DNA of 64,000 bases from Patescibacteria group bacterium (GTDB taxonomy: Bacteria; Patescibacteriota; Patescibacteriia; UBA1558; GWA2-36-10): assembly GCA_041650755.1 (NCBI GenBank), contig JBAZKN010000001.1, forward strand, positions 70,796 to 134,795, read 5' to 3'. The notes under the pieces were generated by a model, which was not told the DNA's origin, did not search any database, and was given only the letters and a program-made list of their open reading frames with translations. Position 1 is the first letter of the stretch; each line of letters begins with the position of its first letter. Of this stretch, positions 7,355-63,945 are shown in pieces. A program made the position numbers and the translations under genes.

Positions 7355-7450
7355 AGCGAACGAAGTGAGCTTGGTTCGAAACTTCAAAGGATGCTCCGCA
7401 ATAGGCGGAGCAACCTAAGATGCTGCGCAATAGCGCAGCGCCCCGAGCCA
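7355..7450 (+). repeat. Reiterated tRNA-Gln 3'-end-derived unit with hairpins, copies R1 and R2
   Basis: atgctccgcaataggcggagc at 7391-7411 and atgctgcgcaatagcgcagcgCCCCGAGCCA at 7420-7450, which ends with the same 10 nt as the tRNA 3' end tccccgagcca. Confidence 0.7.
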
Positions 7451-9971: not shown

Positions 9972-9980
9972 AAAAGCCAT

Positions 9981-10053
9981 TATGCCGGTTACGCTACTAG
10001 CTCCTAATCGTTCAAGCGTCCATATACAAACGATTATTCACAGCCTCATTTTG
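9981..10053 (+). repeat. Structured repeat copy B
   Basis: tatgccggttacgctactagctcct / AATCGTT caagcgtccatataca AACGATT / attcacagcctcatttt. Confidence 0.7.
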
Positions 10054-10133
10054 ATCCTCGATATATTGAAATGAACTTTAACAAAATACACCTCCCATTT
10101 AAGAGGCGTAACCGTTAAAGTCATTTTGACTAT

Positions 10134-10203
10134 TATGCCGGTTACGCTACTAGCTCCTGACCACCCAAGCGTCCATATACAGGTGGTCATTCATAGCCTC
10201 ATT
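10134..10203 (+). repeat. Structured repeat copy C
   Basis: tatgccggttacgctactagctcc / TGACCACC caagcgtccatataca GGTGGTCA / ttcatagcctcatta. Confidence 0.7.
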
Positions 10204-10269
10204 AGTGTATTATATTGTTAACAATTAGCAATATATCATATTACCCATATTTTGTCAATAGGGGATAAA

Positions 10270-14849: not shown

Positions 14850-16010
14850 ATGCACACCAAGCATCTTTTAGTTTTGAATCCAGGGTCAAGCAGCTTGCGG
14901 CTGACGGTTTTTGAAATTAAAGACAAAAATGTTGGCAGCCTGGTTTTTAATGGCATGGTCAGCGGGCAGAACGGTAAAACAGTCCTAATGTATCAGGCGC
15001 GCGGCCAAAAACAAAAAATAAATTATTCAGTTGGGCACAATTTGAAAGCCTGGTGGCAGTATATTCACGATTTGCTCAAAGATTTTGATATAGATATGGT
15101 TGGCGTCAGGGTGGTGCATGGCGGGGAACTGTATACCAGTACTTGTCGAATTGATAAGCAGTTTTTGGCTAATATTAGCCAATTTAATGTTTTAGCACCA
15201 TTGCATAATCCAGCCGCTATAGAATTAATCAAGCTAGTTCAGGCCACTTGGCCAAGAAGTAAGCTAGCCGCTAGTTTTGATACAGCTTGGTACAAAGATT
15301 TAGCGCCGGAAGTTTATCTTTATTCTTTACCTTTAAAATATTACGAAAAAAATAAAATTCGCAAATATGGTTTTCACGGGCTTAGCCATGAAGCGGCTAC
15401 TAATTTTGCTGCCAAAAAATTACGTCTGCCCTTAAATCAATTGCAAGCCATTAGCTGCCATTTGGGTGCCGGTGCCAGCCTTAGCTGGTATATCAAGGGC
15501 AAAGTCAAAGATACAACTATGGGCTTTTCGCCCAACGAAGGCCTGACTATGGCTACTAGATCGGGTGATCTGCCGTCAAGCATTGTCTTGTATTTGGCTC
15601 AAGAGCTCAAGATGTCTTTGCCGGCAATCCATAAAATGTTCAATGAACAATCCGGTCTTTTGGGCATATCCGGACTATCTGATTTGCGAGAAATACTGTT
15701 GGCTGCCGGCTATCGAGTCCAAGGGTATAAATCCAGCTTGAAATTTAGCGCTGAACAAAAAAAGAAGGCTAAACTAGCCCTAGCTATTTATATTTATGAC
15801 ATCAAGCGCTACTTGGCTTCATATATAGCCATGACGCAAAAATTGCAAGCCATAGTTTTCACCGGCACAGTAGGCGTCAATAGTCCGGTTATTAGAAAAC
15901 TTGTTTTAAAAGATTTACAAATTCCTAAAAATTGCAAAATCTTCGTTGCTCCGGAAGGAGAAATGACGATGCTTGCCCAAAAAACACTACAATGTTTGCT
16001 CAAAAAATAA
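14850..16010 (+). CDS. ackA: Acetate/propionate kinase
   Basis: LVLNPGSSSLRL; GFHGLSHEAA; VHLGAGAS-like HLGAGASLS. Confidence 0.9.
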   Translation: MHTKHLLVLNPGSSSLRLTVFEIKDKNVGSLVFNGMVSGQNGKTVLMYQARGQKQKINYSVGHNLKAWWQYIHDLLKDFDIDMVGVRVVHGGELYTSTCRIDKQFLANISQFNVLAPLHNPAAIELIKLVQATWPRSKLAASFDTAWYKDLAPEVYLYSLPLKYYEKNKIRKYGFHGLSHEAATNFAAKKLRLPLNQLQAISCHLGAGASLSWYIKGKVKDTTMGFSPNEGLTMATRSGDLPSSIVLYLAQELKMSLPAIHKMFNEQSGLLGISGLSDLREILLAAGYRVQGYKSSLKFSAEQKKKAKLALAIYIYDIKRYLASYIAMTQKLQAIVFTGTVGVNSPVIRKLVLKDLQIPKNCKIFVAPEGEMTMLAQKTLQCLLKK

Positions 16011-42897: not shown

Positions 42898-45354
42898 ATG
42901 GAATTTACCGTTGAAAATATAGCTGTTGTCATTAGCCTGGTTATTATTCTTAGTATTATTTTTCCCGTGATCGCAAATTATCAAAAAAATAAGGTTGATA
43001 AGAATTTAAAATTGGACATGTTATTGATTAAAGTGCCGAAATATACCAAGCAAGAAAAAGAAGAGTTGTCCAAACAATACATTGAACAGACTTTAGGTAA
43101 AATTGAAAATTTTTTTTCTGCCCTAGCTGGCCTCAAGGCCGAACATCCTTTTTTGGGGCAAGCCAAAGAAATTTTTTCCCTAGATATTGTTTCGGTAGAT
43201 GGTTTTATAAATTTTTACGCGGCCGTGCCGCCAAAATTTAAAGACTTCTTTATTGCCCAGCTGCAGGCTGTCTATCCCAAAATTTATGTAGAAGAAGTGG
43301 TTGATTATAATATTTTTCAGCCACAAGGACAGGTCTTGGCTGGCAATTTATCTTTTGCCAATGATTTTACTTTACCCATCAAGACATATAAGACTTTTGA
43401 AAATGACCCCTTAGAGGGAATTACCAATACCTTAAGTAAGCTGACCAACGACGAATCGGCTGTTGTGCAATATGTCTTTAAATCTGCCCCCAAAAAATGG
43501 CATCAACGCGGCCGTCAACTGGCTCAAAAAATGCAAGCCGGAGCTACTTTTGCCGATGCTATTAAACAGGTTGGTGGCACTTCTTTTTTTGATAAATTGG
43601 AAAAAACAGGTAGTTTTTTTGGCAGCTTTTTTGCTACCAGTAAAAAAGAGGATGAGCAAAAAAAGAAATCCCTGGAAGTCAAACAGCCCTTGTCAGCCAT
43701 GGAACAAGAGCGGGCCAAAAGCCTAGAAGCAAAAACTTCTAAAGCTGGTTTGGATGTCAATATTCGCATCGTAGTTTCAACCAGAAGCTTGGAGCGCTCC
43801 AAGGCAGTTTTACTGGACGTTCTCAATAGCTACAATCAATATAATATTTATGAGTTTGGCAATCGTTTTCAAGCCAGTATACCGCGCCACCCGGATACTA
43901 TTATTGAGTACTTGATTTATCGACATTTTTCAAACAAGCGTAAACTTTTGCTCAACGCTGAGGAAATGGTCAGCGTGGTGCATCTGCCTTTACCGACCAC
44001 TGAAACGCCAAATATTGATTGGCTAGAAGCTGTCAAGGCGCCACCGCCCAGCAGTCTGCCCAGCGAAGGCATTATTTTGGGCAAAAGCATTTATCGTGGC
44101 AAAGAAACTTTGGTGCGCATCAAGGATGCTGATCGTCGGCGACACATGTACGAAATCGGCCAGACCGGTACTGGTAAGTCTGCCTTTATGGAAAGCTTGA
44201 TTAAACAGGATATTGAAGCTGGCAAAGGATTGTGCGTGATTGATCCGCACGGTGAATTGGTAGAAAGATGCTTAACCTATATACCAAAAGAAAGAGCCGA
44301 AGACGTGATTGTTTTTGATCCATCGGATACTGATCGGCCAGTAGCCATTAACATGTTGGAATATGATACCGATGAACAGAAGACTTTTGTGATCAACGAA
44401 ATGATCGCTATCTTTGATAAGCTTTATGATCTGAAAGCTACTGGTGGGCCGATGTTTGAGCAATATATGCGTAATGCAATGCTTTTGGTGATGGACGACA
44501 AAGATTCGGGAGCGACTTTGTTGGAAGTGCCGAGAGTCTTGTCAGATGAAGCTTACCGCAAGCACAAGTTGAGCAAGGTCAAGAACCGCTTAGTCAAAGA
44601 TTTTTGGGAAAAAGAAGCGCAAAAAGCCGGCGGTGAAGCGTCCCTAGCCAATATGGTACCCTATATCACTAGCAAGCTCACGCCTTTTATTGCCAATGAT
44701 ATCATCCGGCCGATTATTGCCCAGCAAAAAAGCGCTTTCAATTTTCGTGAAGCAATGGATAGCAAAAAGATTATCATGATCAATCTATCCAAGGGCAAAA
44801 TTGGTGACATGAATAGTAGCCTTTTGGGCATGATTATTATTGGTAAACTACTATTTGCCGCTTTGAGCAGAGCGGATTATACTGAAGAGCAACGCAATGA
44901 TTTTTATCTCTATATTGATGAGTTCCAAAATTATACTACCGATAGTATCGCTATTATTTTATCCGAAGCCAGAAAATACAAACTGAATTTAATTATCGCT
45001 CATCAGTATATCGCTCAGCTGGTAAAAAATAACGACACCAAGATTCGAGATGCTGTTTTTGGCAATGTCGGCACTATCATCGCTTATCGTCTAGGCGTAG
45101 AGGACGCAGAGGTGATTGCCAAGCAAATGGCCCCGGTGGTTACTGAATATGACCTGATCAATATGCCAAAATTTACGGCTTATATAAAATTATTGATTGA
45201 TAATGCCAATCCGCCAGCCTTTAATTTTAATCCCATTAGGCCGGAAAAAGGCAACTTTGAGCTAGCGGCGGCCATCAAACAATTGTCTCGATTAAAATAT
45301 GGCCGTGATAGAAAAACAGTAGAAGACGAGGTTCAGCAAAGGATTATCATTTAG
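42898..45354 (+). CDS. Membrane-anchored FtsK/HerA-superfamily (VirB4/VirD4/DUF87-like) P-loop ATPase, fused N-domain plus ATPase
   Basis: N-terminal TM; Walker A IGQTGTGKS followed by VIDPHGEL (DPHGE signature); Walker B YIDEFQNY; ARKYKLNLIIAHQYIAQL; FGNVGTIIAYRLG. Confidence 0.75.
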   Translation: MEFTVENIAVVISLVIILSIIFPVIANYQKNKVDKNLKLDMLLIKVPKYTKQEKEELSKQYIEQTLGKIENFFSALAGLKAEHPFLGQAKEIFSLDIVSVDGFINFYAAVPPKFKDFFIAQLQAVYPKIYVEEVVDYNIFQPQGQVLAGNLSFANDFTLPIKTYKTFENDPLEGITNTLSKLTNDESAVVQYVFKSAPKKWHQRGRQLAQKMQAGATFADAIKQVGGTSFFDKLEKTGSFFGSFFATSKKEDEQKKKSLEVKQPLSAMEQERAKSLEAKTSKAGLDVNIRIVVSTRSLERSKAVLLDVLNSYNQYNIYEFGNRFQASIPRHPDTIIEYLIYRHFSNKRKLLLNAEEMVSVVHLPLPTTETPNIDWLEAVKAPPPSSLPSEGIILGKSIYRGKETLVRIKDADRRRHMYEIGQTGTGKSAFMESLIKQDIEAGKGLCVIDPHGELVERCLTYIPKERAEDVIVFDPSDTDRPVAINMLEYDTDEQKTFVINEMIAIFDKLYDLKATGGPMFEQYMRNAMLLVMDDKDSGATLLEVPRVLSDEAYRKHKLSKVKNRLVKDFWEKEAQKAGGEASLANMVPYITSKLTPFIANDIIRPIIAQQKSAFNFREAMDSKKIIMINLSKGKIGDMNSSLLGMIIIGKLLFAALSRADYTEEQRNDFYLYIDEFQNYTTDSIAIILSEARKYKLNLIIAHQYIAQLVKNNDTKIRDAVFGNVGTIIAYRLGVEDAEVIAKQMAPVVTEYDLINMPKFTAYIKLLIDNANPPAFNFNPIRPEKGNFELAAAIKQLSRLKYGRDRKTVEDEVQQRIII

Positions 45355-45359
45355 ATATT

Positions 45360-45381
45360 TTAGCTAATATTAGCCAAAATA
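45360..45381 (+). repeat. Conserved 22-nt intergenic motif TTAGCTAATATTAGCCAAAATA, copy 1
   Basis: Identical to 63760..63781; the core is shared with 55423..55440. Confidence 0.6.
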
Positions 45382-45485
45382 ATCATATTAACAGAAAATT
45401 GCCAGGAATTTATTTTTATGATATTCTAAAATTATCCATAGATTGCTGAAAGAGCGCTGCCTAGTCTTTAAACAAAAATAAAAAA

Positions 45486-49766: not shown

Positions 49767-51842
49767 ATGCCCAAAAAAATCATGGCTAGCAAGAAAAGCC
49801 AAAGCAAAAAATTGACAGCAAAAAACAAGGTCGCTAAACTCAATAATTATTATGGCAACACCACTTTGGCTATTGTTTTCTTTTTATTTGTCATAGCTAT
49901 TGGCGTTTTAATATTAACTAAATTACAAAGGCCATATCAGCGTCCACCAATTATCACTTTGCCCAACAATAATTTGGCCAATACTAATACCCAAGTAGCA
50001 GCCTTTTCTTCAGCAGAAGAATTTTTGAGCTATTTAGAGACAGGCAAAGATCTAGCCAGTAATATCAGTATGCCTGGCATGGGTATAGCCAAAAATAGTG
50101 CTCAAGGCAGGACAGAAGCTATGGATGTCTTGAGTGCTCCTAGCGCGGCTCCGGAAAGAGTATCCACCACCAATGTTCAAGTAGCTGGAGTTGATGAGCC
50201 GGATATAGTTAAAACTGATGGCCAGACAATATATTTTTCCCAAGAGCCCGGTTATCGGACATATTATGATTATGAAATCATGCCAATGGTGCGGGTAGGC
50301 AGCAGCATTGTGCCTCCGCAATATCAAACCGGCAAAACATCTCTTATCAAAGCTTGGCCCACTAAAGACGTAGAATTTTTGACCAAAATAGAAAAATCTG
50401 GAAACTTGCTTTTGGCTGACAATATATTAGCTATTTTTACTGGCCAAGAAATAGTGGCCTATGATGTCAGCGACCGGACTAAACCCAATAAAACCTGGAC
50501 AGCAAAATTTGATGATAATAATTATTTAGTATCAGCTAGATTGTATCAAGATAAGATATACCTGGTCAGCCAAACTTATTTAAATGATTTTAAACCGTGT
50601 CCCTTGAAGACCCTGTCAATCGACGATAAAAATATAGAAATTGCTTGTCAAGAAATTTATCACCCGGTCAGCCCCACCCAGGTGGACACTGCCTTTACTG
50701 CTATGACTATTGATATGAAATCTGGCGAAATCAACCATAAAATATCTTTTGTCGGTATGGCCAGCCAATCAGTGGTCTATATGTCAACCGGCAATTTATT
50801 CGTGACTTATCAGCAGCCCATTGATATGTTTAGCTTTTTGACTGAATTTTTCCGGGAAAAGATGGCAGATTTAGTGCCGGCTGAACTATTGGCCCGCTTA
50901 GATAAGATCAATGGCTATGATATCGGTCAAAATGCCAAGTTGACTGAATTTTATGATGTTTTCGGTAAATGGCAGAATTCTTTAGATAAAGATACTGCTT
51001 TGAAATTGGAAAATGACATGAACAACCGATTAGACGATTATTTAAAAATCAATCAAAGAAAATTATTAAATACCGGCATAGTCAAAATCGGTATAGATGA
51101 TTTTAAAATAAAAGCTACCGGCACAGTGCCTGGTACGCCCTTAAATCAATTCTCTTTGGATGAGTACCAGGATAATTTGCGCATTGCCACGACCCTGGGC
51201 AATGTGTGGCTGGGATTTACCAATAGCACTAATACTGCCAACGATGTCTATGTTTTGGATAAAAATTTGAAAATTACCGGCTCCATCCAAGACCTAGGTC
51301 TAGGAGAGCGCATTTATGCTGCTCGCTTTTTGAGCGACAAGGGATACTTGGTGACTTTTAGGCAGACTGATCCTTTTTATGTCTTAAATTTAGCTGATCC
51401 CAAAAATCCAAAATTAGCTGGTGAGCTGAAAATACCAGGCTATTCCTCTTATTTGCATCAGCTGGCCAACAACAGGATTTTGGGCATTGGCCAGGAAGGT
51501 TCTAAAGTTAAGTTGTCTTATTTTGACGTATCTGATCCAAACAAGCCAAAAGAAATCAGCAAGTACCTATTGGATGAATATTGGAGCGAAGTATCAAACA
51601 ATCACCACGCCTTTTTACAGGATGCTAAGCACCAAATATTCTTCTTGCCGGCTAGTCAAGGCGGTTATGTATTTTCTTATGATGATGACGCCTTGTCTTT
51701 AGAAAAAGCCATCAGTTTGTCCGCAGTTAAAAGAGCTATTTATTTAAATGATTATTTGTATGTTTTGTCATCTTCAGCTATCAAGGTCTATGATGAAAAC
51801 GATTGGCAAGAGGTAAAAAATCTAGATTTAGATACAGACTAA
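49767..51842 (+). CDS. Membrane-anchored secreted beta-propeller domain protein (Beta_propel-like)
   Basis: N-terminal TM; conserved C-terminal block YAARFLSDKGYLVTFRQTDPFYVLNLADPKNPKLAGELKIPGYSSYLH. Confidence 0.6.
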   Translation: MPKKIMASKKSQSKKLTAKNKVAKLNNYYGNTTLAIVFFLFVIAIGVLILTKLQRPYQRPPIITLPNNNLANTNTQVAAFSSAEEFLSYLETGKDLASNISMPGMGIAKNSAQGRTEAMDVLSAPSAAPERVSTTNVQVAGVDEPDIVKTDGQTIYFSQEPGYRTYYDYEIMPMVRVGSSIVPPQYQTGKTSLIKAWPTKDVEFLTKIEKSGNLLLADNILAIFTGQEIVAYDVSDRTKPNKTWTAKFDDNNYLVSARLYQDKIYLVSQTYLNDFKPCPLKTLSIDDKNIEIACQEIYHPVSPTQVDTAFTAMTIDMKSGEINHKISFVGMASQSVVYMSTGNLFVTYQQPIDMFSFLTEFFREKMADLVPAELLARLDKINGYDIGQNAKLTEFYDVFGKWQNSLDKDTALKLENDMNNRLDDYLKINQRKLLNTGIVKIGIDDFKIKATGTVPGTPLNQFSLDEYQDNLRIATTLGNVWLGFTNSTNTANDVYVLDKNLKITGSIQDLGLGERIYAARFLSDKGYLVTFRQTDPFYVLNLADPKNPKLAGELKIPGYSSYLHQLANNRILGIGQEGSKVKLSYFDVSDPNKPKEISKYLLDEYWSEVSNNHHAFLQDAKHQIFFLPASQGGYVFSYDDDALSLEKAISLSAVKRAIYLNDYLYVLSSSAIKVYDENDWQEVKNLDLDTD

Positions 51843-51844
51843 TT

Positions 51845-52645
51845 ATGACCGAGGCTTCATACCAGATACAAAGCCAAAAACAAAAGGACTATTATAATCA
51901 AACTGCAAAGCATTATGATCAGTGGCACGTAGATACCGGTAGTGCCGCTGTGGTTGATGCTTGGAATTTTTCTAATCTAAAAAAATTTTTAGGTAAGAAC
52001 AAAATCGATACCTGTCTAGATATTGCTTGCGGCACCGGACGCCTAAGTAATAATTTATTACAGATTGCCCGTGAAGTTTATGGCGTGGATCAATCTCAGG
52101 CTGTCCTGGATATCGCCCAAGCTAAATATCCACAACTGAAGTTAGCCTGCGCCGAGGTTGTTGATTTGCCTTATGCTGACAATTTTTTCGATTTAGTGCT
52201 GATCAATGGTTCTTTGCATCATTTTTTTGCTGTCAAAAAAACTTTGACAGAAGCTAAAAGAGTTTTGAAACCCGGTGGTTATTTTGTGCTCTTGGGCGAG
52301 CCATCTAGTCTTTATCACAAAATTTACAATCCTTTTTTCTATATTTGGCTTGTGGATAGGGCTATAAATAAGATATTTTCTTTAGTCAAAAAAAGTCCCG
52401 CCAGTTCAGAAATAGAGCCTGAGGCAGAGGCCTATCATCCGCCTCAACTAAAACAGCAATTTTTGGATAGTGGATTTATTGTCCGCCAATTTTATACTTA
52501 TGACTTTTTTCCTCGTCATGAGTCAAGAATCTGCTTAAAAATATATCGTTGGTATTTGCCCTATGAACACAAAATTTTAGCTAAGATTTGCCCATTTTTA
52601 GGCTCAGCTATACAAATTTTTGCCCAAAAACCAAAAAATGCCTAG
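51845..52645 (+). CDS. Class I SAM-dependent methyltransferase (Methyltransf_11-like)
   Basis: LDIACGTGRLS motif I; LKPGGYFVL; start moved to the ATG at 51845 just after the upstream stop. Confidence 0.8.
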   Translation: MTEASYQIQSQKQKDYYNQTAKHYDQWHVDTGSAAVVDAWNFSNLKKFLGKNKIDTCLDIACGTGRLSNNLLQIAREVYGVDQSQAVLDIAQAKYPQLKLACAEVVDLPYADNFFDLVLINGSLHHFFAVKKTLTEAKRVLKPGGYFVLLGEPSSLYHKIYNPFFYIWLVDRAINKIFSLVKKSPASSEIEPEAEAYHPPQLKQQFLDSGFIVRQFYTYDFFPRHESRICLKIYRWYLPYEHKILAKICPFLGSAIQIFAQKPKNA

Positions 52646-55368: not shown

Positions 55369-55391
55369 ATACCCCCAAAATAAAGGGGGTA
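55369..55391 (+). terminator. Rho-independent terminator after secF
   Basis: tacccccaaaataaagggggta followed by a T-containing tail. Confidence 0.6.
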
Positions 55392-55422
55392 TTCAGTTTA
55401 AAGAAAATTATTATTTTTATTT

Positions 55423-55440
55423 AATATTAGCCAAAAAATG
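55423..55440 (+). repeat. Conserved intergenic motif core AATATTAGCCAAAA, copy 2
   Basis: Shares the 14-nt core with 45360..45381 and 63760..63781. Confidence 0.5.
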
Positions 55441-55496
55441 ACATTATTTTAAACTCTATTTTGCGTTTTTTCTATTTGAGGGTTGACTTATTTTAA

Positions 55497-55550
55497 AAAA
55501 TGTGTTATTCTATGAAATGTTTAAAAAGTAAACACATTTTTAAACGTTTA
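55497..55550 (+). promoter_or_regulatory. Nested palindromic operator-like site immediately upstream of the sigma-r4/HARE-HTH gene
   Basis: aaatgtttaaaaa...tttttaaacgttt (13-nt arms, 1 mismatch) plus aaatgtgtt/aacacattt; ends 11 nt before the ATG. Confidence 0.5.
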
Positions 55551-55560
55551 AGTAAAACAT

Positions 55561-56667
55561 ATGGAATCTATATTGGATCAAGTGATTACTGCCAGACATT
55601 TGTCAAATTTGGCAAATTTTAATCCCCATCAAACCCTAGATAACATCTTGGCGGCTTTGTCAGACCGCGAACGCGAGATTATTAAGTTGCGTCATGGTTT
55701 ATCTGGTTATGAAAAAAAGACCTTGGAGGAAATTGGCCAAAAATACAAAGTCACTCGTGAAAGGGTAAGGCAGATTGAGAATACTGCTCTCAAGAAAATC
55801 ACCAAAAATTTTGATCAAACCTATCTTAAGGAAATAGAAGATATTGCCAATGGCATTTTATCTGAACATGGCGGCATGATGTCAGAAACCAATTTAATCA
55901 AAGAATTATTGACCGTGCCCGGTAATACGCCGGAGAATCAGGCAGCTATTCGCTTTATCTTAAATCAATTACTGAAAAACCGTTTTCACTTCATCAAAGA
56001 ATCCAAGGATTACCATAATTTTTGGAAAACTCCAGAGTCTTCCCAAGGTTTTTTTGAAGAAACCATTGATCATATTGCTAAATTGATCCATGGCCATGGT
56101 ACGCCATTGCCCTTAGAACATCTTTTATCAAAAATTCAACAGCATGATTTTTATAAAGATAATGATGATTTGACTGATCGAGTGATTGTCAACTTTATTT
56201 ACATCACCAAAAAACTAAAGGCCAACCCTTACGATGAGTGGGGTTTGGCAGAATGGTCAGCCATCAGTCCGCGTCGCATGAACGACAAAATTTATCTGGT
56301 CTTGAAAAAGGAAAATCGCCCCATGCACTTTACGGAAATTGCCGATATGATCAATAAAATGCAGTTTGATCAGCGTCAAGCCTATCCGGCCACCATCCAT
56401 AATGAATTGATTTTAGATGATAAGTACGTTTTGGTGGGCCGTGGTATTTATGCCTTATCAGAATGGGGCTATAAGCCGGGCGTGGTCAGCGACGTGATCG
56501 CTGAAATTTTACAAGCCAATCCACAAGGCTTAAGTAAAAAGGAGATTATTGCCGAAGTATTAAAAAAGCGCTTAATCAAAGAAACCACTATTACTTTAGC
56601 CCTGATGAACAAAGATCGTTTTATCCGCAATGAACGAGGTCGCTACACTTTGAAAACTAATGCTTAA
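55561..56667 (+). CDS. Sigma-70 region-4-like HTH protein fused to tandem HARE-HTH domains
   Basis: LSDREREIIKLRHGL...TLEEIGQKYKVTRERVRQIENTALKKI (sigma r4); later PYDEWGLAEWS and LVGRGIYALSEWGY (HARE-HTH hallmark). Confidence 0.65.
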   Translation: MESILDQVITARHLSNLANFNPHQTLDNILAALSDREREIIKLRHGLSGYEKKTLEEIGQKYKVTRERVRQIENTALKKITKNFDQTYLKEIEDIANGILSEHGGMMSETNLIKELLTVPGNTPENQAAIRFILNQLLKNRFHFIKESKDYHNFWKTPESSQGFFEETIDHIAKLIHGHGTPLPLEHLLSKIQQHDFYKDNDDLTDRVIVNFIYITKKLKANPYDEWGLAEWSAISPRRMNDKIYLVLKKENRPMHFTEIADMINKMQFDQRQAYPATIHNELILDDKYVLVGRGIYALSEWGYKPGVVSDVIAEILQANPQGLSKKEIIAEVLKKRLIKETTITLALMNKDRFIRNERGRYTLKTNA

Positions 56668-56786: not shown

Positions 56787-58289
56787 ATGAATTTTAGCGT
56801 TGAGGTCAATAATTTTATCAATACACTACTGACTATAGGTTCTTTGCCACCGGATATAGCTTTTATTTATTTAATGACCCACTATATCTGGCCAATTTAT
56901 GTTGTCATGATTTTATGGATGGCTTATGATGTTTGGCTGACGTCTCTGCAGAATAAGTGGTTTGCTACTCACAAGTTCATCCTTTTGGCTATTGATATAC
57001 CTAAAGATACCGAACAGACACCAAAGGCTATTGAGCAACTATTTGCCACCCTATCAGGCGCTCATACGCCCATCAGTACTCGCGATAAATATGCTGGCAT
57101 GTTTCAGCTGTCATTTTCTTTTGAAATTGTCAGTATAGACGGCTATATTCAATTTTTGATTCGCACTCCCAGCCACTGGCGGGATCTGGTAGAGAGTTCC
57201 ATTTATTCACAGTATCCCGATGCAGAGATCACTGAAGTGGAGGATTATACCACTGATTTGCCGCGTAAATTTCCCGACGACAAATACAATATGTGGGGTG
57301 CGGAAATAGTTTTGGTAAATAAAGATGTTTATCCCATAAAAACTTATATTGATTTTGAAGATGCGGTTTCCGGAGAATTCAAAGATCCAATGGCCTCAAT
57401 TTTGGAAACTATGAGTAAAATACAGGCCGGTGAACAGGTCTGGGTGCAGCTGATAGTCAGACCGACTGACCACCTCTGGACTAATCGTAGCAAAGCTGAA
57501 GCCGACAAATTGGCTGGTAAAAAGGTTAAAGCACAGAAAGGTTTATTGGAAAGACTGTTTGGCCCTCTGTTTGGTTTATTTTTCCTGTCTGGCGGCGACT
57601 CTATTTTTTGGCCAACTGGCGCTGAATCCAAATCAGAAAAAAAGGCCAATGAACCAATTAGCTTGATGCTGTATATGACCCCGGGAGAGAGAATAAAGAT
57701 TGAAGCAGTAGAAAAAAAGGCATCCAAAATAGGCTTTCAATGCAAAATTCGCTTGGTCTATCTATCGCCCAAAGAGCAGTATAATCCCGGCAGGGTAGTT
57801 TCTTCGGTGTTTGGTTCGCTGAAACAGTTTAGCACCATGCATTTGAATTCTTTTAAGCCCGATGCTAAAACCAAGACCAAAATAGAGTGGATTATGGTCA
57901 AAACCAGGACCAATTGGCGCCGTACAAACCTCATTAGAGCCTATAAGAGCCGCAGCGGCATCATCGGACATGGCTATTTTATATTAAATACCGAAGAACT
58001 AGCTACTTTGTGGCACTTTCCTAGCAAATTTATTCGCACGCCTTTATTGCAAAAAACAGAGTCCAAAAAAGCCGAACCGCCAGCTTCTTTGCCTATTATG
58101 TCTGGAATTTTTGATACCCAGACCGAGCAGGCAAGCGCTGAATTACGCCAGCAGCTAAAAACAGTGCCGGAATTCAATATACCCCTGGACAATACTTATT
58201 TTGAGGAGCGCTTTGCCAAAGACAAAAGCCAGGTCAAGCCAAGACATACAAAAAACGAGCCACCGACTAATCTACCCGTTACCAAATAA
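56787..58289 (+). CDS. Membrane-anchored N-domain protein, paralogue of the N-terminal half of 42898..45354
   Basis: 2 TM at the N-terminus; FSFEIVSIDGYIQFLIRTPSHWRDLVESSIYSQYPDAEITEVEDY aligns with FSLDIVSVDGFINFYAAVPPKFKDFFIAQLQAVYPKIYVEEVVDY. Confidence 0.65.
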   Translation: MNFSVEVNNFINTLLTIGSLPPDIAFIYLMTHYIWPIYVVMILWMAYDVWLTSLQNKWFATHKFILLAIDIPKDTEQTPKAIEQLFATLSGAHTPISTRDKYAGMFQLSFSFEIVSIDGYIQFLIRTPSHWRDLVESSIYSQYPDAEITEVEDYTTDLPRKFPDDKYNMWGAEIVLVNKDVYPIKTYIDFEDAVSGEFKDPMASILETMSKIQAGEQVWVQLIVRPTDHLWTNRSKAEADKLAGKKVKAQKGLLERLFGPLFGLFFLSGGDSIFWPTGAESKSEKKANEPISLMLYMTPGERIKIEAVEKKASKIGFQCKIRLVYLSPKEQYNPGRVVSSVFGSLKQFSTMHLNSFKPDAKTKTKIEWIMVKTRTNWRRTNLIRAYKSRSGIIGHGYFILNTEELATLWHFPSKFIRTPLLQKTESKKAEPPASLPIMSGIFDTQTEQASAELRQQLKTVPEFNIPLDNTYFEERFAKDKSQVKPRHTKNEPPTNLPVTK

Positions 58290-58291
58290 AT

Positions 58292-60001
58292 ATGAATGTT
58301 AATGATATAACAACTTTTGCTGAGACTAATTTCCGTAATTCACGGGTAAAGTTTGGTATTAAGACAGACGATAGGCGCCGACATATGTATATTATCGGTA
58401 AAACTGGCATGGGTAAATCAACCTTGTTGGAAAACATGATCATTCAGGACATCCAGGCCGGCAAAGGAGTTTGCGTAGTCGATCCACATGGTGAGCTGGT
58501 TGAAAAAGTGATTGATTTTATACCACAGAACCGCATCAATGATGTAATTTATTTCAATCCCGCTGACCTTGAATACCCGATAGCCTTTAATGTGCTGGAA
58601 AGCGTCAACATCGAGCAACGCCATTTGGTAGTTTCTGGATTGATCGGTGTCTTTAAAAAGATCTGGGCTGATTCCTGGGGCCCAAGACTAGAATATGTTC
58701 TGCATCATGCAATTTCTGCTTTGCTGGAATATCCTGGCTCGACCCTTTTGGGCATTATGCGCATGCTGACGGACAAAAAGTTTCGTGAGCGGGTAGTTGA
58801 TAAAGTGACCGATCCAGTGGTAAAGGCCTTTTGGGTTGATGAATATTCTCGTTATCCAGACAATCTCAAGGCCGAAGCCATTGCTCCGATTCAAAACAAG
58901 GTAGGCCGATTTTTATCCTCTTCTTTGATTAGAAACGTCCTGGGCCAGGTCAGATCTTCCTTCTCAATGCGGGAAATTATGGATGGCAAAAAAATATTGT
59001 TACTAAATTTATCCAAAGGCAGGGTGGGCGAGGATAACTCGGCTTTACTTGGCTCCATGATGATCACCAAGATTCAGCTGGCTGCCATGAGCCGGATAGA
59101 TACCCCGGAACAGGAGCGCAATGATTTTTACCTTTATGTTGATGAATTTCAAAATTTTGCCACCCAAAGTTTTGCCAATATTCTATCAGAAGCGCGTAAG
59201 TATAGGCTGAACTTGATCATGGCCCACCAATATATTGATCAATTAAAATGGGGTAATGATGAAACGGTCAAGTCGGCAGTCTTTGGTAATGTCGGCACCA
59301 TCATTGCTTTCCGCGTTGGTGCTACTGATGCGGAATTTCTGGAAAAAGAATTTTTCCCGGTTTTTACTCAAGAAGATTTGGTCAATCTGTCTAAATACGA
59401 AATTTATCTAAAATTAATGGTTGATGGCGTAGCCACTGAGCCATTTTCAGGAGTAGGCTTGCCGCCGGTAATATTACCTGCCGAATCAATCGGCATCAAA
59501 GAAAAGGTGATCAAAGTATCCAGAGAAAGATATGCCAAGCCCCGCGAGATTATTGAAGATAAAATCGCTCGTTGGGCAGAAAATAAAGAGGGCAAAGAGC
59601 CAGAAAAAAACAGCAAAGAAGACAGAGTAAAAAAATCCAAAAAAAAAGGCGATGAGGAAAGAAAATCTGGTTCCAAAAAGCCAAAAATCAGCAAAATAAT
59701 AAATTGCACTTACTGCGGTAAAGAAGCGGAAATCAATTTTGAGCCCGATCCTACTAGGCCAGTATACTGCGATGATTGTTTGATACTGGCCAAACAAGGA
59801 AAAATTCCCTCTCCTACCAGTATCAAAATACTCAAAGAAGAGTCAGCCAGTAAAAAAGTAGATGATGATCAGACCAAAGAACAGTTTATCTCTCTATCGG
59901 AAGCAATAAAATCAAATAATCTTCATTCTGGCAAAGAAAAAAGTAAGCAAGTGGCCGAGGATGAGCATCTGCTTCAGCCAGGACAAATTGTTAAGTTTTA
60001 A
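58292..60001 (+). CDS. FtsK/HerA-superfamily (VirB4/VirD4/DUF87-like) ATPase with C-terminal Lys-rich linker and zinc ribbon
   Basis: IIGKTGMGKST Walker A; VVDPHGELVE; YVDEFQNF Walker B; ARKYRLNLIMAHQYIDQL; C-terminus CTYCGKEAEINFEPDPTRPVYCDDC. Confidence 0.75.
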   Translation: MNVNDITTFAETNFRNSRVKFGIKTDDRRRHMYIIGKTGMGKSTLLENMIIQDIQAGKGVCVVDPHGELVEKVIDFIPQNRINDVIYFNPADLEYPIAFNVLESVNIEQRHLVVSGLIGVFKKIWADSWGPRLEYVLHHAISALLEYPGSTLLGIMRMLTDKKFRERVVDKVTDPVVKAFWVDEYSRYPDNLKAEAIAPIQNKVGRFLSSSLIRNVLGQVRSSFSMREIMDGKKILLLNLSKGRVGEDNSALLGSMMITKIQLAAMSRIDTPEQERNDFYLYVDEFQNFATQSFANILSEARKYRLNLIMAHQYIDQLKWGNDETVKSAVFGNVGTIIAFRVGATDAEFLEKEFFPVFTQEDLVNLSKYEIYLKLMVDGVATEPFSGVGLPPVILPAESIGIKEKVIKVSRERYAKPREIIEDKIARWAENKEGKEPEKNSKEDRVKKSKKKGDEERKSGSKKPKISKIINCTYCGKEAEINFEPDPTRPVYCDDCLILAKQGKIPSPTSIKILKEESASKKVDDDQTKEQFISLSEAIKSNNLHSGKEKSKQVAEDEHLLQPGQIVKF

Positions 60002-62687: not shown

Positions 62688-63737
62688 ATGAGAAATAAAG
62701 AAAAAGGCAGGATCTTGGTAGCTTTATCCGGCGGAGTAGATTCGGCGGTGGCTTTGTATTTACTAAAAAAACAAGGTTACGAGGTAGAGGCCGCTTTTAT
62801 GAAAAATTTTTCTGCTAGAGCAAATATCAAGGGCGACTGCCCCTGGAAAGAAGACCACCTAATGGCTTATCGGGTAGCCAGCCAGCTAAAAGTGCCCATT
62901 CGGACATTTAATTTTGAAAAACAATATCACCAGAAAATAGTAAGCTATATTTTTTGCTCTTACAAACAAGGGCAAACGCCAAATCCCGATGTCTTATGTA
63001 ATAATGAAATAAAATTCAAATTATTTTTAGATAAAGCTATCAAGCTTGGCTTTGATAAAATAGCTACCGGTCACTATGCTCAAATCAAACAAACAAAAAA
63101 TGTCTATCGCCTATATCGTGGCCGGGATAAAAACAAGGATCAATCCTATTTTTTGGCTGGTTTAGGCCAAGCCCAATTAGCTAAAAGTTTATTTCCCATT
63201 GGCCACTTGACTAAGCCACGGGTCAGAAGCATTGCTAAAAGGGCAAAACTCGTAAATGCTGATCGGCCAGACAGCCAAGGGATTTGCTTTATCGGCAAAA
63301 TAAATCTAAAAGATTTTCTGGCGCAAAAAATAAAACCCAAAGAGGGAAAAACTCTAAATACTAAAGGTGAATTTTTAGGCACACATCAGGGCGTTTGGTA
63401 TTATACCATCGGCCAGCGTCAAGGCTTAAATCTATCTGGCGGACCTTGGTATGTGGTAGATAAGAATGTCAAAAAAAACATATTAACCGTTGCTCGCCTT
63501 AATGAATCATCCCTATACAAAAAAACTATTAAGATAGATTCACTACACTGGTTAGGCAAAATCTATAAATTACCGCTTAGAGCTAAGGCCCAAGTTCGCT
63601 ATCGCCAGCCAGCTCAGAATGCCACTTTGTATAAGGAAAAAATTATTTTTACAGTGAGGCAAAGGGGGGTGGCTAGCGGACAAATTCTGGTTATTTATAA
63701 AAATAAAGAACTAATAGCCAGCGCTACTATAATATAA
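62688..63737 (+). CDS. mnmA: tRNA-specific 2-thiouridylase MnmA
   Basis: ILVALSGGVDSAVA PP-loop; catalytic Cys context CNNEIKF; 349 aa. Confidence 0.9.
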   Translation: MRNKEKGRILVALSGGVDSAVALYLLKKQGYEVEAAFMKNFSARANIKGDCPWKEDHLMAYRVASQLKVPIRTFNFEKQYHQKIVSYIFCSYKQGQTPNPDVLCNNEIKFKLFLDKAIKLGFDKIATGHYAQIKQTKNVYRLYRGRDKNKDQSYFLAGLGQAQLAKSLFPIGHLTKPRVRSIAKRAKLVNADRPDSQGICFIGKINLKDFLAQKIKPKEGKTLNTKGEFLGTHQGVWYYTIGQRQGLNLSGGPWYVVDKNVKKNILTVARLNESSLYKKTIKIDSLHWLGKIYKLPLRAKAQVRYRQPAQNATLYKEKIIFTVRQRGVASGQILVIYKNKELIASATII

Positions 63738-63759: not shown

Positions 63760-63781
63760 TTAGCTAATATTAGCCAAAATA
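63760..63781 (+). repeat. Conserved 22-nt intergenic motif, copy 3
   Basis: TTAGCTAATATTAGCCAAAATA, identical to copy 1. Confidence 0.6.
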
Positions 63782-63856
63782 TTGGTTATTTTTATTTTTT
63801 TGTCTTTGGGGGCTTGACAAATCTATTATTTATGTTAGCATATACAACTGCTCGGT

Positions 63857-63945
63857 ATGGGCGTAGCTCAGTCAGGATCCCGGCCGGAAAGAGCGCTGCA
63901 TTATCGGTGCAGAGGTCGCAGGTTCAAATCCTGCCGCCCATACCA
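63857..63945 (+). tRNA. Atypical 89-nt tRNA with a 13-nt palindromic D-loop insertion and nominal anticodon ATC (Asp codon GAU); isotype uncertain
   Basis: Acceptor atgggcg/cgcccat; U8; D-stem gctc/gagc enclosing agtcagg-atcccggccggaa-a; anticodon arm ctgca ttATCgg tgcag; T-arm gcagg ttcaaat cctgc; encoded CCA. Confidence 0.55.

Follow-up and report, generated by a model that had tools for sequence, protein, structure and literature searches.

A conserved palindrome at whole helical turns upstream of predicted housekeeping promoters in Patescibacteria, a probable site of a global regulator

The closest described systems to the motif reported here are the class I CRP sites of E. coli and the Fis sites of Gammaproteobacteria. 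In the textbook class I arrangement the CRP site is centred at -61.5, -71.5, -82.5 or -92.5, and Fis is, to our knowledge, restricted to Proteobacteria. Boxes of the Fur/Zur/PerR type are odd-length 7-1-7 inverted repeats, TAAT-N-ATTA, situated before metal-homeostasis genes. Within the Patescibacteria, the LexA box (the SOS operator, reportedly described by Sanchez-Osuna and co-workers in 2017) is the only studied cis-regulatory protein-binding motif that we found in the literature on the phylum, and full-text searches with the core string of our motif and with related topics found no description of it.

The palindrome described here recurs within a 64,000-nucleotide stretch of DNA, referred to throughout as the window, which belongs to a 250-kb metagenomic contig (ENA ERZ27247363) with a Patescibacteria (CPR) gene content and 41% GC. 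Its consensus, TTTTrGCTAATATTAGCyAAAA, forms a symmetric site of about 20–22 bp in which two GCTAA half-sites are placed about 10 bp apart, roughly one helical turn, and so present themselves on the same face of the helix. Each half has an invariant GC pair, the two GC cores being 10 bp apart, and the dyad is of even length (TAAT|ATTA) without a central base. The copies in the window are as follows.

15161..15186, no strand assigned: site D, an 18-bp palindrome without mismatch (TTGGCTAATATTAGCCAA) that spans 15165-15182 and is extended on the left by TTTT
45356..45381, no strand assigned: site A, an inverted repeat of 26 bp (TATTTTAGCTAATATTAGCCAAAATA) in which one pair is mismatched; the dyad falls between 45368 and 45369
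52577..52594, no strand assigned: a possible weak copy (TTAGCTAAGATTTGCCCA) with three mismatches at the 3' end of the ORF 51803-52645, of low confidence
55417..55438, no strand assigned: site C, a degenerate copy (TTATTTAATATTAGCCAAAAAA) whose right half matches well; the dyad falls between 55425 and 55426
63760..63781, no strand assigned: site B, where the 22-mer occurs exactly for the second time; the dyad falls between 63768 and 63769

The initial annotation had reported two identical copies of a 22-mer, and both are present without a mismatch, TTAGCTAATATTAGCCAAAATA occurring at 45360-45381 and again at 63760-63781. A third copy that it had placed after the secF terminator is indeed there but is degenerate (55417-55438): its right part is AATATTAGCCAAAAAA at 55423-55438, and the poor left half, TTATTTAATATTAGCCAA, carries two or three mismatches. 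The sequence singled out in the 5' half of the motif (TTAGCTAA) is palindromic, but the symmetry spans the whole motif and at site A reaches 26 bp. Site D is a fourth copy that had not been listed.

Recurrence by chance had been judged unlikely, and the numbers agree. With up to three mismatches allowed, dinucleotide shuffles of the 64-kb window lead to an expectation of 0.02 matches, against six observed, which correspond to four distinct sites (three full copies starting at 45360, 63760 and 15165, and the degenerate one at 55417). The 84 kb around the window hold two further three-mismatch copies where 0.3 are expected, and the search of other genomes that had been called for adds matches throughout the phylum. 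Nor do the window copies belong to a longer dispersed repeat: they share only the 22-mer, and the flanks examined contain neither common sequence nor terminal inverted repeats. We therefore regard the finding as confirmed, in that it is real and is explained neither by chance nor by a dispersed repeat.

An exact-pattern scan for the 20-mer TTRGCTAATATTAGCYAAAA over one genome per GTDB species, plus metagenomes, returned at least 117 genomic and at least 115 metagenomic stretches, where a rough estimate predicts a handful of matches by chance. The matches listed are overwhelmingly from Patescibacteria MAGs (Komeili-, Kuenen-, Magasanik-, Uhr- and Kerfeldbacteria, together with Parcubacteria/Paceibacter), the few listed in Acinetobacter, Pseudoalteromonas, Methanobrevibacter and similar organisms being compatible with chance, and six matches in viral contigs follow no clear pattern. 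Among the listed matches the flanks are unrelated except in one Kuenenbacteria MAG. All of the site sets were chosen by exact matches of 18–20 nucleotides, so that the true degeneracy of the motif is poorly known. In the fetched loci there are, in addition, copies outside that selection, namely 12 with one or two mismatches (about none expected) and 17 with three mismatches (2.4 expected).

We note in passing that Patescibacteria-like genes are present in several MAGs bearing the title 'uncultured Gammaproteobacteria bacterium' (loci L017, L020, L025, L030, L041, L044, L064, L073, L077, L080 and L083). Because the partial RpoB of L073 is 66–76% identical to RpoB proteins labelled as Patescibacteria (about 1,080–1,110 aa), sequence comparison suggests that the Gammaproteobacteria labels of these MAGs are probably wrong. 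In five loci (L011, L025, L030, L083 and L091) the palindrome is found amid DnaA-box-like sequences (TTATCCACA, TGTGGACAA) downstream of a tRNA-Ala or tRNA-Arg gene, and these loci may represent an origin-proximal region.

The positional analysis relative to genes that had been proposed was carried out on 131 non-redundant sites (the listed matches minus MITE copies and near-duplicates, with genes called by a crude ORF caller), and places them mostly in intergenic DNA upstream of predicted promoters. Their contexts are distributed as follows.

Between tandem genes: 53 of 131 sites
Between divergent genes: 23 of 131 sites
Between convergent genes: 14 of 131 sites
Inside a called ORF: 20 of 131 sites (15%)
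At a locus edge: 21 of 131 sites

The intergenic bias is strong, since the host genomes are densely coding and yet few sites fall inside ORFs; moreover, many of the 20 ORFs that hold sites are only 50–140 aa long and are probably spurious. The frequency of the divergent context points to a role linked to promoters and not to termination.

The most informative property of the placement is its periodicity. Outward-pointing TTGAC sequences cluster at 25, 35, 46 and 55 bp from the dyad, and are phased at a period of 10.5 bp (Rayleigh p = 1.6e-6, n = 73), whereas the inward-pointing TTGAC sequences that serve as a control have no periodicity (p = 0.99). The phased hexamers belong to predicted TTGACA-17-TATAAT promoters, often with an extended -10 TG, and if the first T of the hexamer is taken as -35 the dyad falls at about -60.5, -70.5, -81.5 and -91 of these predicted promoters, that is, at whole helical turns upstream of the core promoter. 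The sites are mostly 14–80 bp upstream of an ordinary TTGACA -35 element and stay clear of the core promoter. Dyad-to--35 distances are 44, 44, 44 and 55 bp at tuf promoters, 20, 44, 55 and 66 bp at infA promoters, and 45, 53 and 55 bp at rpoB promoters, one of which (L050) has a second TTGACA at 33 bp. Because orthologous promoters in different lineages differ by whole turns, the constraint acts on the helical face and not on absolute distance. The palindrome also lies 27, 28, 38 and 51 bp (counted manually) upstream of the -35 elements of ECF-type promoters (TGTAAYA...CGTCTA) that front an ECF-like sigma gene in four genomes, and its presence before both sigma70-type and ECF-type promoters suggests an effect that is apparently independent of the sigma factor. 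Secondary half-sites (TTAGCYAAA) are often seen between a distal palindrome and the -35 element, and there is no preference for the A- or the G-variant half to face the promoter (counts of 16, 15, 14 and 12).

Genes whose starts are no more than 500 bp downstream of a site were grouped by BLAST clustering and counted by Pfam family, and the same ones recur in independent lineages. EF-Tu recurs five times, and RpoB, IF-1 and an ECF-like sigma factor four times each, followed by HU and Sigma70_r4/HARE-HTH proteins (three each), adenylate kinase and ribosomal protein L10 (two each), and tRNAs; the gene names downstream include tuf, rpoB, infA, rplJ and adk. The recurrent targets are thus the core transcription and translation apparatus.

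In the window itself the motif marks the predicted promoters of a tRNA operon after mnmA and of a sigma4/winged-helix gene after secF, and probably also that of a unit composed of a hypothetical gene and dnaX at site A. The corresponding features are these.

45399..45427, plus strand: predicted promoter at site A, TTGCCA-17-TATTCT with an upstream TG, from a consensus scan only
55483..55511, plus strand: predicted promoter of the sigma4/winged-helix gene at site C, TTGACT-17-TATTCT with a TG, read directly from the sequence
55561..56667, plus strand: sigma4/winged-helix gene, 368 aa, with Sigma70_r4 and four winged-helix domains
63814..63841, plus strand: predicted promoter of the two-tRNA operon at site B, TTGACA-16-TAGCAT with a TG

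Site B starts 22 nt past mnmA (which ends at 63737), and its dyad is 45 bp from the predicted -35 element, in phase and near -80.5. The operon that follows consists of an 86-nt tRNA at 63857-63942 and a tRNA-Val; the former scores 57 bits with Rfam, was missed by ARAGORN, and apparently contains about 15 inserted nt around the D-arm. Site C is situated after the secF terminator hairpin (55369-55392) and upstream of the sigma4/winged-helix gene, with its dyad 57 bp from the -35 element, again in phase and near -92; the promoter sequence is conserved in relatives, and the 57-bp distance is repeated in L246. Site A lies between a gene for a fused DUF8128/TrwB-like ATPase, with the 22-mer starting 5 nt past its TAG stop codon (45352-45354), and a 195-aa ORF that is followed by dnaX. 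The promoter predicted ahead of this ORF and dnaX gives a dyad-to--35 distance of 30 bp, which is off the preferred phase, and an alternative, weaker -35 element (TTAACA at 45388) would be in phase at 19 bp from the dyad. Neither site A nor site B is kept in the relative L249, whose sigma4/winged-helix ortholog is 68% identical, and site A is missing from the equivalent 61-bp spacer of that locus. The possible weak copy at 52577..52594 is 64 bp upstream of a predicted TTGTCA-16-TACAAT promoter ahead of secD.

Site D is located within ackA (14850-16010), in a frame that encodes LANISQ, and its palindrome is not kept in the one ackA ortholog examined (L118). At three other loci (L099 at 6103, L169 at 5880 and L194 at 10391) the palindrome sits inside an orthologous gene of about 240 aa at the same codons (aa 74-75), where it encodes VNILANISQNI; this is a conserved intragenic site, unlike the ackA copy of the window. 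Two further observations on the window may be recorded here. The 818-aa gene at 42898-45354, which immediately precedes site A, is a fused paralog of a DUF8128 and TrwB-like ATPase pair that is also present unfused, as separate genes at 56787-58289 and 58292-60001; and tandem c-di-GMP-II riboswitch aptamers are found on the minus strand at 9974-10057 and 10127-10210 (64–66 bits).

The sigma4/winged-helix gene deserves separate consideration. In the AlphaFold model of its product (pLDDT 88), four winged-helix domains are arranged in tandem after an N-terminal domain, and the third of the four is a HARE-HTH domain of the RNA-polymerase-delta type. The N-terminal domain is 46–55% identical to region 4 of primary sigma factors (Foldseek), and the region-4 recognition helix TRERVRQIE is invariant in 35 homologs. 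The family has more than 6,600 matches, the best of which are 65–75% identical, and every top match with a named source is from Patescibacteria. Conservation in relatives had been proposed as a check on the motif, and a gene-first sample of four 20-kb homolog loci (48–73% identical), fetched regardless of whether they contain the motif, bears on it directly. All four share the order secD, secF, sigma4/winged-helix gene, DUF8128 and TrwB-like ATPase, and in three of the four the spacer between secF and the gene contains a copy with two or three mismatches upstream of a conserved TTGACT...TATTCT promoter; the spacer of the fourth (L253) has the left motif half only. The window's own site C is a fifth case upstream of this gene. 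The manually counted dyad-to--35 distances of the spacer copies are 57 bp (L246), 43 bp (L249, about 3 bp off phase) and 78 bp (L251). We also observed that the TrwB/DUF87-type ATPase gene after DUF8128 carries a zf_Tbcl_2 domain in the window and in L246, L249, L251 and L253.

Within the 20-kb samples the spacer copy is the sole or main copy of the motif, which makes the sigma4/winged-helix gene a core member of the regulon and is the pattern expected of an autoregulated factor. Its product is the best candidate for the protein that binds the motif, although we put this forward tentatively, as one possibility. The more elaborate proposal, that the palindrome is the site of a Patescibacteria-specific protein combining region 4 with four winged-helix domains, which would act as a polymerase-tethering global activator and autoregulate its own gene, is more speculative again; if it were true, it would describe a phylum-wide CPR growth-control circuit with no described counterpart, and a new kind of polymerase-associated activator. 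A version in which the sigma-4 domain reads TTrGCT as a -35-like hexamer is weak, given that the third position of the half-site varies (A, G or C); the equivalent G of a -35 element is a key contact for sigma-4. No gene for an ECF-like sigma factor, a TrmB-like protein, an HTH_17 protein or HU is present in the 84 kb around the window.

Several other explanations for the motif have to be weighed against a regulatory site bound by an activator. The palindrome might serve as the operator of a repressor, perhaps a factor under negative autoregulation that damps housekeeping promoters, and in L129 and L137 it does have an operator-like position, downstream of an extended -10 promoter and ahead of the ATG of the sigma4/winged-helix gene; a core-regulon position beside a putative transcription factor gene would likewise fit negative autoregulation. 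Most sites, however, are placed too far upstream of the -35 element (14–80 bp) to overlap the core promoter, and phasing at -60, -70, -81 and -91 is the signature of an upstream activator, so that we consider a repressor operator quite unlikely as the prevailing arrangement, though repression may occur at some promoters. Helical phasing would also be expected from bend-mediated effects, and an architectural or nucleoid-associated protein that bends or insulates the DNA upstream of strong promoters, without direct contact to RNA polymerase, could account for the A/T-tract flanks and the secondary half-sites between the main site and the -35 element, for the existence of intragenic copies, for the nearness of some sites to DnaA-box-like sequences, and for the HU genes among the targets. 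This explanation is hard to reconcile with a 20-bp motif that is exact across lineages whose RpoB proteins are 65–75% identical, which is far more specific than typical nucleoid-protein sites, or with a density of about one site per 15–20 kb, too sparse for a structural protein, and we judge it unlikely.

Readings that assign the motif no role at promoters fare less well. Copies located 5 and 22 nt past stop codons invite interpretation as an intrinsic terminator or a small RNA, both of which the initial annotation had considered, or as another RNA-level hairpin such as a processing site, and the palindrome is able to fold (-7 to -12 kcal/mol in windows of 61 nt). The stem is nevertheless weak and AT-rich, without a U-tract on either strand, and the z-scores for the three copies folded on both strands are mostly not significant; the GC-rich hairpin with U-tract at gene 3' ends that defines a Rho-independent terminator is not what is found at these sites. 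In addition, the terminator scan did not list the motif copies, secF is already served by a GC-rich terminator that precedes site C, no Rfam match overlaps any window copy, and the sites are at least as common in divergent as in convergent pairs (23 versus 14), all of which leaves a terminator or small RNA with scarcely any credibility. Descent from a mobile dispersed repeat (a MITE or REP-like element, or a remnant of one) with no regulatory role in the source genome derives its appeal from the Kuenenbacteria MAG JACQWZ01, where the motif is carried in at least 71 copies by a 118-bp element bounded by terminal inverted repeats of about 15 bp. Around the window copies no MITE terminal repeats occur in the flanks examined, the flanks are unrelated beyond the 22 bp both in the window and at about 130 other sites, placement is promoter-specific and phased, and the same genes are targeted in distant lineages; we regard this origin as very improbable.

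What we favour, with a probability of about 0.68, is that the motif is the homodimer-bound site of a global regulator of Patescibacteria housekeeping promoters, placed at whole turns upstream of the -35 element. Its constituent claims can be graded individually: that the motif is a protein-binding regulatory site acting on promoters appears likely, and that the regulator activates is a view to which we incline somewhat. Among the options raised initially, the transcription-factor site is the one that the data support, through dyad symmetry, intergenic placement upstream of promoters, helical phase, and conservation before orthologous housekeeping genes; a UP element or a -35 element for a specific sigma factor is not supported, since the motif precedes ordinary TTGACA elements (by 14–80 bp) as well as ECF-type promoters, and does so at several discrete distances. 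We envisage that a homodimeric, sequence-specific protein would bind the palindrome upstream of sigma70-type and ECF-type promoters, and that, from dyads at about -60, -70, -81 and -91, it would act on RNA polymerase in a manner dependent on the helix face. The most likely action would be activation through polymerase contact, similar to the alpha-CTD-mediated contact of class I activators or to Fis at stable-RNA promoters.

A regulon of this kind would be the first global one defined for the phylum beyond SOS, in organisms with reduced genomes, the uncultivated Patescibacteria, in which the control of transcription is hardly known. Should the regulon reading hold, the motif would also be a practical marker for strong promoters in Patescibacteria genomes. 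It raises the question of which protein binds, and of how these symbionts couple expression of the growth machinery to their own state.

Comparison with described sites helps to define what the motif is. A box of the Fur/Zur/PerR type does not match, the motif being of even length and its targets being tuf, rpoB, infA and tRNAs. As an operator for LexA it was also rejected, because the lexA promoter has a GTTC-type repeat instead and because positions and target genes differ. The lexA promoter on the window's contig (L005, 7100-7140, minus strand, some 3 kb before the window begins) has the form TTGACG-TTCGGTTTTTGTTCGG-TATATAAT and carries GTTCGGTTTTTGTTCGG within its spacer, without the palindrome; this spacer holds a direct repeat of the GTTC-N7-GTTC type, which is probably the LexA box of the source organism. 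UP elements resemble the motif in being A/T-rich and in preceding the -35 element of strong promoters, but they are asymmetric, lack a conserved GC core and have a fixed position from -40 to -60, whereas the motif is palindromic and takes up discrete positions out to about -100, and we reject a UP element on the grounds of symmetry and of these variable discrete positions.

MITEs that carry regulatory sites, such as the Correia elements of Neisseria and the ERIC/REP elements of enterobacteria, offer a parallel to the 118-bp element of the one Kuenenbacteria MAG, and the comparison fails for the window and for most genomes, where the motif is solitary. In JACQWZ01, which is very AT-rich (loci L007-L122), the MITE-like element has the terminal inverted repeats TTCAGGAGTTACGCA...TGCGTAAGTCCTGAA and carries one perfect palindrome together with a second, degenerate copy (GCTAACTTTAGCC), with examples in L036 at 651-670, 1268-1287, 1957-1976 and 7360-7379. 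It seems that a mobile element spread the regulatory site through this genome.

The likeness to Fis sites is more instructive. Both kinds of site lie upstream of promoters of stable RNA and translation-apparatus genes and are helically phased, and the resemblance fits growth-related global control, the targets of the motif including tRNA, tuf, infA, rplJ and rpoB; the Fis motif, however, is degenerate, 15 bp long and odd-centred, and the motif here is a highly conserved even palindrome. The correspondence with class I CRP sites is closest in geometry, as both are 22-bp sites with two-fold symmetry whose dyad lies whole turns upstream of the promoter. A CRP site serves a helix-turn-helix dimer, and we liken the motif to the same, with its binder proposed by comparison; contact with the alpha-CTD is suggested here by analogy. 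The sequences are unrelated (TGTGA-N6-TCACA for CRP, GCTAAT|ATTAGC at the dyad of the motif), CRP targets catabolic operons whereas the motif targets the transcription and translation machinery, and neither a CRP/FNR consensus at the motif nor, in Pfam listings for the 84 kb around the window, a CRP/FNR gene was found. With neither a CRP/FNR nor a Fis protein linked to it, the motif is probably an undescribed site of the upstream activator type, one that works architecturally like class I CRP sites and Fis sites but belongs to neither family.
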